14,815 nt of DNA from a virus (IMGVR_UViG_2778261464_000012:1-14815); one strand, 5' to 3'; positions 8,669 through 10,639 are shown, counted from the first letter of the stretch. The notes: generated by a model not told the origin, from the letters alone. Translations and numbers: made by a program.

Positions 8669-10112
8669 TCTCTTCTAGAGTTATGCGAGGATCACCACCC
8701 ATTTCACTAATGATCTGAGTTTTAGATTTAAGCCCTGCATCAAGTAACATAATCTCTGCCTGAATATCCTTAGTAGCATCTAGGGAGATTGGTTTTACTG
8801 GAATATAGCGAGCACAAATAGCATCATCAAAATCACTAAAAGAGATATTGAGATTACTATTATTTAGCATTTCGCATTTCATCCATTCTAGATAGATTGG
8901 TTTTAGTACTCGACTAATTAGGACATTACTACGAGTTCTAAATGTGGTTGCCTGTAGGCGTTCTGCAAGTTTCGCGGCTGAGAAACTAGCATCAGCAGTA
9001 CTACCCATTAGGGATTGTTTAGTGACGTTTAGACCCATTGCGATTTGATCCATTAGTTCACTAGTAAATTCACCTATTTTATCAGCACCATTACTTGGGC
9101 TAACTGTTTTAATATCCTGATTCTTACCTAGTTCAAATACTGCACCCGGTTCAAGATATTCAGAGTATGTTGCAGTACTATCAGTTTCACCCGCCACTAA
9201 TTCTACTTGGTCAGTATCATTATTATTATTAGTAATGTACGCCGTAGCACTTGCACTAATACGTTTTGCAATTAATGCTGCCTCGGTAAAATTCTTTAAG
9301 TCTTCCATAGTTTTGCTAGTACTGATCATATCCGGTATACCGCGTTCCTGTCCCATCTGTTGAGGGATGAAGTAATGACAGATTTCCTTAGCCGGAATAA
9401 TTTCAAAAGCCGTAGCATCATATGTATAGGTAATTGGGTTGTAGATACAGAAGTAATAATTTACTGGTTTACGGTATTGGTTATATTCCACGCCATTTGA
9501 GATGTAATTCCCATTGTCTAACCACTGGTTATTTAGTTGAGTTAGACGAGCGGCATCAATGATTTCAAGTTTTACTGTGTTATTCACATTATGAATACGG
9601 ATAAAACATTCACCGTCCTGTACGCGAATCTTCTCTACTGTCTGTTGGAAGATATCAAAGGTCATAGAACCATCTAGGCTAAAACGGTCTGCATCATAAG
9701 CCCAACGGTCAAAATGCTTTTCAAGACGCTGTGAGAGTTCCTGTAGTTCGTCTGGTGTCATACCCTCAATAGTTGGGGCTGGCTTAATATAAACACCCTC
9801 CGCACCTACTACGCCATCTACAGATAGGTTCATGTACTTACTACCTAGGGGATTCTTTAGCACTGCCTCACGTGAAGCATTACGCCAATCACTTAGGAAC
9901 CAGCGAATCAAGTTATTGATATTTTGTGAACCAGTACCGGAAGTAAATCCAAAACTAATTACTGGTGTACTCATTCCGCGTACTGCCTGTAAATCACGCT
10001 TCATAGTTAATGCAGGTTTTTCAATGAAACGTTTCTGACTTGGTTTTGCTTTTACTTGTGGTCGCGGCTGTGCCTGTGGCTTTTTCTTCCAAAACATTAG
10101 CGTGTTCCCCAT
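8571..10112 (-). CDS. Portal protein (lambda gpB-like)
   Basis: About 510 aa ORF between the terminase and capsid genes, with C-terminal similarity in character to lambda gpB (by recall). The start is ATG at 10112 or ATG at 10097..10095, which overlaps the upstream TAA as TAATG. Confidence 0.85.
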
Positions 10113-10639
10113 CTGTTAGGATAATTAGGATCACGGAATATGGTTACGCTCTTGAATGGTTTACCATTACCATTCACTGGTAGATCGTTCATACTAGCCC
10201 ATAGTGCATTAGCACGTTTAATATAACGGATACGCATATTTTCTAGGTTAGTTAGTGATTCACTAATTAAAGTTTTATTGTTTATTGTTGTTGAGTAAAC
10301 ACCACCACCTGCTACTTTATCTGCAATCACTTGGTCAATATCTGAAATTAATTTAAGCAACTGTGAATACTCGGTAGTATATTTAGTTGGATCAATTACT
10401 TCTGAGATAAAGTTAGTTGTAGTAGTACCGCTAATCTGAACACAAAATAGTTTGTCACTAGGGCTATTCATATCAATAGTTAGGGTGAATTCTTTAGCTA
10501 CTGAACTTGGATTAGTGAGGGTAATCGAATTCCCCCCACTTAGATAGTTAACTACTAATGTGGTTGCGGCTGGTAGTGTTACCTGTTGATCATATGGTTG
10601 TGTCAACATATAGATCTTTTCTGGTAAAATATTTGCCAT
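10097..10639 (-). CDS. Hypothetical protein (about 180 aa) in the gpW position between terL and portal
   Basis: The ATG at 10639..10637 is preceded by AAGGAAATAAAA, which contains the terL stop codon. The track ORF extends to 10675 only by using an upstream alternative start inside terL. No recognisable motif. Confidence 0.6.

Follow-up and report, generated by a model that had tools for sequence, protein, structure and literature searches.

In virions of the roseophage vB_DshS-R4C (hereafter R4C), the protein gp4 has been identified by cryo-electron microscopy as a dodecameric adaptor capping the portal (Nat Commun 2023, PMC10276861). Residues 1-106 of gp4 form an immunoglobulin (Ig)-like attachment domain that makes a symmetry-mismatched contact with the capsid proteins, and the tube domain that follows comprises two helices (107-130 and 149-166), the second of which is sandwiched between portal loops (PMC10276861). 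The adaptor loop 131-148 binds the N-terminal helix and the core of the stopper via K131, R141 and R145, R141 being engaged in a salt bridge with the stopper, and a C-terminal hook (167-178) forms hybrid beta-sheets with the portal clip (PMC10276861). In the adaptor gpW of bacteriophage lambda, the structure determined in situ consists of helices 4-22 and 37-54, a hairpin (23-36) whose tip residue Arg32 clamps DNA, and a C-terminal arm (55-68) that augments a portal beta-sheet (PLoS Biol 2023, PMC10721106). The present work concerns a gene of 180 codons, hereafter gene X, carried at 10639..10097 on the minus strand of a 14,815-nucleotide (nt) stretch of viral DNA (IMGVR_UViG_2778261464_000012:1-14815; 'the window' refers to this whole stretch), between a gpA-type large terminase gene (terL) and a lambda-family portal gene.

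A first-pass annotation of the window had pointed out that this gene is unusually large for the slot occupied by gpW in lambda, that its product displays no recognisable motif and that it is coupled to both of its neighbours; it was suggested to be either a head-tail joining protein of extended form or some other accessory of packaging. With 180 amino acids (aa) against the 68 aa of gpW, the product is indeed 2.6 times as large, and it falls into no family of Pfam or NCBIfam, where the searches returned only noise (AGT, E 0.03; DUF5740, E 0.15). The comparisons presented here indicate that gene X probably encodes the head-to-tail adaptor of a lambda-like Escherichia coli prophage, which would form a ring capping the portal. 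The protein represents a divergent Enterobacterales branch, hitherto without annotation, of an adaptor family that is known and structurally characterized.

Family membership of gene X

The search of the PHROGs with gene X produced a single significant match, phrog_5774 ('head-tail joining', E 1.8e-8, residues 81-164). The same entry is matched by all 30 scanned members of the gene X family (best E 9.8e-38), the remote members aligning over their full length. It is also the family of R4C gp4 (5.7e-37) and of gp05 from the Vibrio phage VP882 (2.2e-66), and gp3 of the Klebsiella phage KA2-1 is annotated with it. Profile-profile comparison with hhalign of the gene X family to a 121-sequence VP882/R4C family gave probabilities of 96.8% and 96.6% (E 2.9e-10 and 6.4e-10, the latter to R4C gp4), over 110-122 aligned columns spanning both domains, against 0.04% for a reversed-sequence control. 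When the gene X profile was restricted to Enterobacterales sequences, the probability was 90% (E 1.6e-6). A profile that included remote relatives had a single meaningful match in the PDB, 8gtd_M (E 0.0045-0.0056), annotated 'Head-to-tail joining protein', with 178 aa and 12 chains. Entry 8GTD is the C12 portal-adaptor reconstruction of R4C and its chain M is the adaptor gp4 (PMC10276861). A PDB search with a profile of the close homologues only gave no match, 8GTD appearing once the remote relatives were added.

Predicted structure and conserved residues

The AlphaFold2 model of gene X, computed from the family alignment with a mean predicted local distance difference test (pLDDT) score of 79, begins with a seven-stranded beta-sandwich (residues 8-82, pLDDT 81-93), continues with a helix (84-110), a short hairpin (118-123) and a second helix (129-150), and ends with a tail of low pLDDT in which short strands are found at 167-169 and 177-179. 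The domain boundary lies at residues 82-84, and modelling the C-terminal half alone recovered identical elements. Their order matches that of R4C gp4, and the alignment maps the elements one to one: in the hhalign register, the R4C adaptor loop 131-148 corresponds to residues 111-129 of gene X, the R4C hook 167-178 to the start of its arm, and the residue facing R4C R141 is the nearly invariant K122. This correspondence suggests a role for Lys122 similar to that of R141.

The residues I119, N120, N121, K122, L124 and E127 are invariant or nearly so, and conservation throughout the family is also seen at K163 and S164. The family signature, GGxVxxxTINNKTLxxESLxxLxxMRxxYxKRAN...KPFKSxTxF, sits in the loop, the second helix and the arm. 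The arm contains a conserved strand of 10 residues and finishes with a stretch of 11 residues.

Conservation and spread of the family

The protein search for homologues covered 5.8 billion proteins and recovered 72 homologous clusters, 176-187 aa in length and 50-98% identical to gene X, from E. coli, Klebsiella, Enterobacter, Cedecea, Rahnella, Erwinia, Pantoea, Cronobacter and other hosts. All named homologues are labelled 'hypothetical protein' and none of the 72 clusters carries a Pfam domain. An exhaustive hidden Markov model search of 1.84 billion representatives detected only 22 gene X clusters, including remote members of 150-175 aa, and the family is thus small. Queries with gene X and with the remote relative P0076 in tblastn found no matches among 50,697 phage genomes.

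The ratio of non-synonymous to synonymous substitution rates (dN/dS) of gene X is 0.10-0.15 relative to relatives with unsaturated dS. It amounts to 0.05-0.11 in the C-terminal module and to 0.18-0.44 in the Ig domain or N-terminal half. Gene X is therefore under purifying selection, which is strongest on the C-terminal module. Gene order was compared among 80 related IMG/VR viral contigs and judged where a contig covers the genes concerned: the succession terS-terL-X-portal-(protease-capsid fusion) was found in every covering contig, even where terL is only ~40% identical.

Two metagenomic copies of gene X are split near the domain boundary into separate N- and C-domain open reading frames (ORFs), at 4762-5300 in contig L087 and at 1010-1538 in contig L086. 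The frameshift in L087 adjoins an A-run and the portal gene of L086 is fragmented too; both copies are probably sequencing errors or pseudogenes. Another peculiar occurrence is found in Escherichia phage DCP80 (PQ671644.1, 141 kb), classed in the Tevenvirinae, whose record displays a lambda-like head module at its left end (1734-7789). This module encodes terL, a 161-aa homologue of gene X, a 513-aa portal and a 666-aa capsid fusion, all of them annotated as hypothetical except terL, and the record may be a chimeric assembly.

Gene limits and translational junctions

The longest ORF that can be delimited mechanically extends from a GTG at 10675 to 10097 and would encode 192 aa. We retained the ATG at 10639, from which the 180 aa are counted, because AAGGA is found 7 nt ahead of it and because this start, with the N-terminus MANILPEK, is common to all homologues. 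The stop codon of terL (TAA, 10652-10650) is followed by GGA and therefore belongs to the Shine-Dalgarno sequence of gene X, TAAGGA; the gap between this stop and the ATG is 10 nt. An upstream arrangement of the TAAGGA type, in which the gap measures 9-17 nt, is encountered in most of the distinct scorable junctions of the related contigs.

At the other end, the stop codon of gene X (TAA, 10099-10097) overlaps the ATG of the portal gene (10097-10095) as TAATG. This overlap is kept in all 47 distinct gene X/portal junctions of the related loci (once as TGATG), each with a G-rich run upstream. The portal N-terminus starting at TAATG, MFWKKK, is conserved in the related contigs, in contrast to the start at 10112 proposed by ORF calling, which is not. 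Since the ribosome-binding site of the portal gene lies within codons W177-G178 of gene X, the extreme C-terminus of the protein is constrained twice, and its conserved ...RWGTR end may partly reflect the overlap with the portal Shine-Dalgarno sequence. The two-sided coupling described in the first-pass annotation is thus a recurrent property of these loci. An opposite-strand ORF at 10558..10815 (85 aa) was set aside, as it overlaps the conserved gene X and is without support.

Proposed role in the neck

By homology to R4C gp4, both the stoichiometry and the contacts of the gene X product can be proposed. Once the terminase has left the portal after DNA packaging, twelve copies would bind the exposed portal clip. 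Helices 84-110 and 129-150 would pack side by side, and the resulting ring would lengthen the portal channel. The flexible C-terminal arm (151-180), with its conserved KPFKSVTxFR strand, would enter the portal clip by beta-sheet augmentation. The hairpin and loop 111-128 (TINNKTL, with Lys122 at the tip) would face down and inward and dock a hexameric gpFII-like stopper, for which the 97-aa product of 6683..6390 is the candidate; the hairpin may also touch the DNA end. Finally, the N-terminal Ig-like domain (1-82) would swing outward onto the capsid proteins at the portal vertex and so brace the 12-fold neck on the 5-fold shell. According to this scheme, gene X most likely fulfils the function of lambda gpW and possesses, in addition, a domain for attachment to the capsid. 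No other gpW-like ORF was found in the window.

Several observations weigh against this assignment. The presence of the protein in virions, its copy number and its contacts are predicted from a homologue, R4C gp4, whose identity to gene X is only ~14% in the profile alignment. The R4C contacts are themselves approximate, since the adaptor was modelled as backbone only, at 4.7 A (PMC10276861). Taken by itself, the gene X sequence matches PHROG 5774 with its C-terminal half only, and intermediates are needed to link the N-terminal domain. Fold searches with the gene X model returned generic Ig sandwiches and helical hairpins, and neither 8GTD nor gpW. The stopper assignment is weak, and hhalign found no significant similarity between the 97-aa candidate and R4C gp9. 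Across 67 loci, the similarity of the Ig domain was correlated with that of the major capsid protein (MCP) with a Spearman coefficient of 0.39, which is no higher than with terL or portal and is confounded by shared ancestry; co-variation of the C-terminal module with the portal, at the same loci, displayed no clean pattern and is confounded in the same way.

Relation to lambda gpW

The adaptor assignment can be refined, and is not contradicted, by the proposal that gene X is a true homologue of lambda gpW. An ancestral adaptor of ~70 residues would have gained an N-terminal Ig-like domain, and PHROG 5774 and the Pfam gpW family would constitute one superfamily. We regard this as plausible, if somewhat short of an even chance. 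The C-terminal ~100 residues of gene X are predicted with the gpW order of elements, namely a helix (84-110), a hairpin, a second helix (129-150) and a floppy arm; such a helix-hairpin-helix is, against this, simple enough to have arisen by convergence. The slot and the partner families also match those of gpW, with a gpA terminase, a PF05136 portal and a gpFII-like stopper. Between the two families, hhalign picks a topologically sensible register, in which residues 101-151 of gene X face gpW 7-55 and Lys122 falls on gpW Arg31, beside Arg32. VP882 and R4C carry a GR(R) motif at the hairpin tip, as does gpW with GRR, and the C-terminal modules of R4C gp4 and VP882 gp05 weakly match the 76-residue 'head-tail adaptor' PHROG 118 (E 1e-3 to 1e-4).

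The direct comparisons speak against common descent. PF02831 was matched at E up to 10 neither by gene X, its C-terminal half or its remote relatives, nor by R4C gp4 or VP882 gp05, in searches where lambda gpW itself scored 5.8e-38 as a positive control. The hhalign probability between gene X and the gpW profile is 0.1-1.6% and not significant; this negative is weak because the gpW profile is shallow (effective number of sequences, Neff, 1.9). No stand-alone C-module was found either. The proteins P0073 (99 aa) and P0086 (97 aa) had been considered as such modules of gpW size and were ruled out as frameshifted copies, because their contigs display an adjacent N-domain ORF in another frame.

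The comparison with the gpW fold called for by the first-pass annotation therefore has a divided outcome: the predicted topology agrees with gpW, but homology at the level of sequence or profile is not significant. As the sequence tests fail, we call gene X gpW-like in function and do not file it in the gpW family. Only predicted topology, gene position and partners match, and an 'extended gpW' is thus a true description of function, unproven as descent. The idea may nevertheless be stated in a general, tentative form. The helix-hairpin-helix-arm module of PHROG 5774 could perhaps be a very diverged gpW homologue, the Ig-bearing and Ig-less adaptors of phages with a gpA terminase and a lambda portal making up one superfamily. 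Its Ig-bearing members would have accreted a fast-evolving Ig domain that fastens the 12-fold neck onto the 5-fold capsid; a basic tip residue (Lys122 in gene X, Arg31/32 in gpW, Arg141 in R4C) would grip either the stopper or the end of the DNA. The R4C work reports no structural relative (PMC10276861) and gpW's in-situ structure (PMC10721106) came out later; we found no paper equating the PHROG 5774 adaptor module with gpW.

Other possible roles

Two further explanations depart from the adaptor ring altogether. Gene X might decorate or cement the capsid, or be some other accessory with an Ig domain located outside the portal-proximal ring, considering that its N-terminal half is an Ig-like sandwich, a fold common in phage decoration proteins, and that this half evolves faster than the remainder. 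This is highly improbable: conservation is highest in the helix-loop-helix, whose homologue is the tube domain of an adaptor proven by structure; every relative keeps the gene in translational coupling with the portal gene; and the head module has no other adaptor candidate.

Equally hard to sustain is a non-structural accessory of packaging or assembly that would be missing from mature virions, such as a terminase-portal docking factor like lambda gpFI or a chaperone; gene X does stand within the packaging cluster, coupled to terL and unnamed in databases, but its homologue R4C gp4 was resolved in the mature virion and no enzymatic or DNA-binding motif is present in gene X according to Pfam, NCBIfam and PHROGs. 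Of the two suggestions made in the first-pass annotation, the different packaging accessory is accordingly disfavoured, and the extended head-tail joining protein is upheld by PHROG 5774, by the profile match to R4C gp4 and by 8gtd_M. Homology to a known non-structural protein, named in the first-pass annotation as a possible refutation, did not emerge.

Neighbouring genes of the window

The window encodes a phage head-neck-tail module on the minus strand, in the order terS, terL, X, portal, protease/MCP fusion, 97-aa protein and tail genes (Table 1). The capsid fusion is 29-32% identical to the capsid proteins of VP882 and R4C, so that the head modules as a whole belong to one type. The 97-aa stopper candidate matches PF05354 with an E-value of 0.0011, below the Pfam cut-off, and phrog_82 (Hc1) with an E-value of 0.0029.

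Table 1. Coordinates of gene X, its predicted elements and its neighbours within the 14,815-nt window
Feature	Coordinates	Strand	Basis or remark
Gene X, predicted portal adaptor (head-tail joining protein)	10097..10639	-	TAA stop at 10097-10099 included
Residues 1-82, N-terminal Ig-like beta-sandwich, predicted capsid 'attachment domain'	10394..10639	-	
Residues 84-110, tube helix alpha1	10310..10390	-	AlphaFold2; X 87-110 aligned to R4C 107-130
Residues 111-128, adaptor loop/beta-hairpin, signature GGxxxxTINNKTLxxE, K122 at tip	10256..10309	-	AlphaFold2 hairpin 118-123
Residues 129-150, tube helix alpha2, LxxLxxMRxRYxKRAN	10190..10255	-	AlphaFold2; X 130-147 aligned to R4C 149-166
Residues 151-180, flexible C-terminal arm/hook, predicted to insert in portal clip	10100..10189	-	AlphaFold2, low pLDDT
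TAAGGA, terL stop fused to gene X Shine-Dalgarno	10647..10652	-	Sequence; arrangement recurs in related loci
Portal translation-initiation region within gene X end	10095..10110	-	GGGGA (codons W177-G178) 7 nt upstream of the ATG of TAATG
terS	13059..12478	-	phrog_57
terL, gpA-type large terminase	10650..12563	-	PF05876 7e-50, PF20454 3e-44, phrog_15
Portal, lambda family, predicted docking partner of X	8571..10097	-	PF05136 2e-56, phrog_21; start from comparative data
Prohead protease-major capsid fusion, predicted Ig-domain contact	6689..8668	-	PF04586 + PF05065, phrog_617
97-aa probable stopper/head-closure protein, gpFII-like, predicted adaptor-loop partner	6390..6683	-	Weak matches

If terL starts at its first ATG, its ORF shares 86 nt (12478-12563) with that of terS, and overlaps of ~60-80 nt are seen in the tblastn alignments of related loci. 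The portal diverges much more among the related contigs than do X, terL and the capsid, with a mean normalised tblastn score of 0.18 versus 0.5-0.7. This suggests that portal genes are exchanged as a mosaic while the TAATG junction is kept, and the difference may be inflated by the use of best-HSP (high-scoring segment pair) scores.

A 145-aa ORF (5951-6388, minus strand) that separates the stopper candidate from the tail genes matches nothing in Pfam, PHROGs or NCBIfam; by its position it could be a tail terminator or a neck protein. The adjacent 560-aa protein (4266-5948, minus strand) starts with a lambda-type tail-tube domain (PF16461, E 5.7e-6; phrog_158), displays internal tandem repeats recognised by eye in the translation and terminates with a tail-fibre domain (phrog_9017, 1e-29). 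Its N-terminus is paralogous to the 156-aa major tail protein encoded further downstream (920-1390, minus strand). Together with a 952-aa tail protein (1444-4302, minus strand, phrog_2871), the gene of the 560-aa protein lies before the tube and chaperone genes, and its product may be a tube-like ring carrying fibres near the neck. Upstream of terS and divergent from it, a DUF3800 gene occupies 13304-14425 on the plus strand (PF12686, 2e-10). The segment 11021-14815 is 99.9% identical in E. coli G3/10 (NZ_CP060075.1), where terL is truncated and directly adjoined by an IS3 element, the remainder of the head module being absent.

Comparison with known adaptor systems

The role proposed for gene X is an ordinary one, because the structure of its family has already been solved in a marine phage. 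The value of the finding lies in the annotation and in a modest gpW-plus-Ig hypothesis for PHROG 5774, and it opens no new mechanism. At least 72 Enterobacterales protein clusters now labelled 'hypothetical protein', and for which neither Pfam nor NCBIfam has a model, can be named as head-tail adaptors. This naming completes the neck inventory, adaptor and stopper, of a prophage lineage that has no isolate in the phage collection searched.

Families of the gp6/gp15 type (SPP1 gp15, HK97 gp6, RcGTA g6, T5 p144, Avs-1 gp11) are also dodecameric and combine a helical bundle with an 'attachment domain'. In these adaptors, however, this domain forms an insertion in the helical bundle and grips the portal, unlike an N-terminal Ig domain reaching the capsid, and gene X has no match to them (Phage_connect_1 and relatives) in Pfam or PHROG.

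VP882 gp05 and KA2-1 gp3 stand closer. With their relatives phiHAP-1 and the RcCronus group, they occupy the same slot as gene X in the order terS-terL-X-portal-(protease-MCP fusion), and they have similar lengths (176-179 aa) and belong to PHROG 5774; the KA2-1 protein moreover has the hairpin motif INN[KR]xL in common with gene X. This group is nonetheless unmatched by tblastn with gene X, profiles being needed to establish the link. VP882 and KA2-1 carry P2-like contractile-tail baseplate genes, whereas the window encodes lambda-type tail-tube proteins. The annotations of the adaptors in this group show no experimental study.

The likeness to R4C gp4 extends to length (178 versus 180 aa), to the N-terminal Ig-like domain, to the two helices around a loop or hairpin and to the C-terminal hook. 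In both cases the adaptor gene is immediately upstream of the portal gene, within a module that also encodes a gpA-like terL and a protease-capsid fusion. The differences are an additional gene, annotated as a single-stranded DNA-binding protein, between terL and the adaptor in R4C, and the adaptor loop, which reads SIEGRSI in R4C instead of TINNKTL. The Ig domain of gene X is shorter (~82 versus 106 residues) and devoid of the W..G.Y motif of the R4C/VP882 group, and its C-terminal arm is ~15-20 residues longer. The hosts also differ, Enterobacterales for gene X and Roseobacter for R4C, a Dinoroseobacter phage.

Lambda gpW (PF02831; PHROG 75, 'Ad1'; nuclear magnetic resonance structure 1HYW) occupies the same slot as gene X, flanked by a gpA-type terL and a lambda-family portal. 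It is a 12-mer adaptor between the portal and the gpFII stopper and exposes a basic residue at its hairpin tip, a role that gene X would share by prediction; the arm 151-180 of gene X has its counterparts in the gpW C-arm and in the R4C hook, both of which augment portal beta-sheets. In contrast, gpW has only 68 aa, lacks the Ig domain and belongs to a separate PHROG and Pfam family. The gpW slot of lambda-like head modules can thus accommodate an adaptor that carries an Ig-like capsid-attachment domain in addition.

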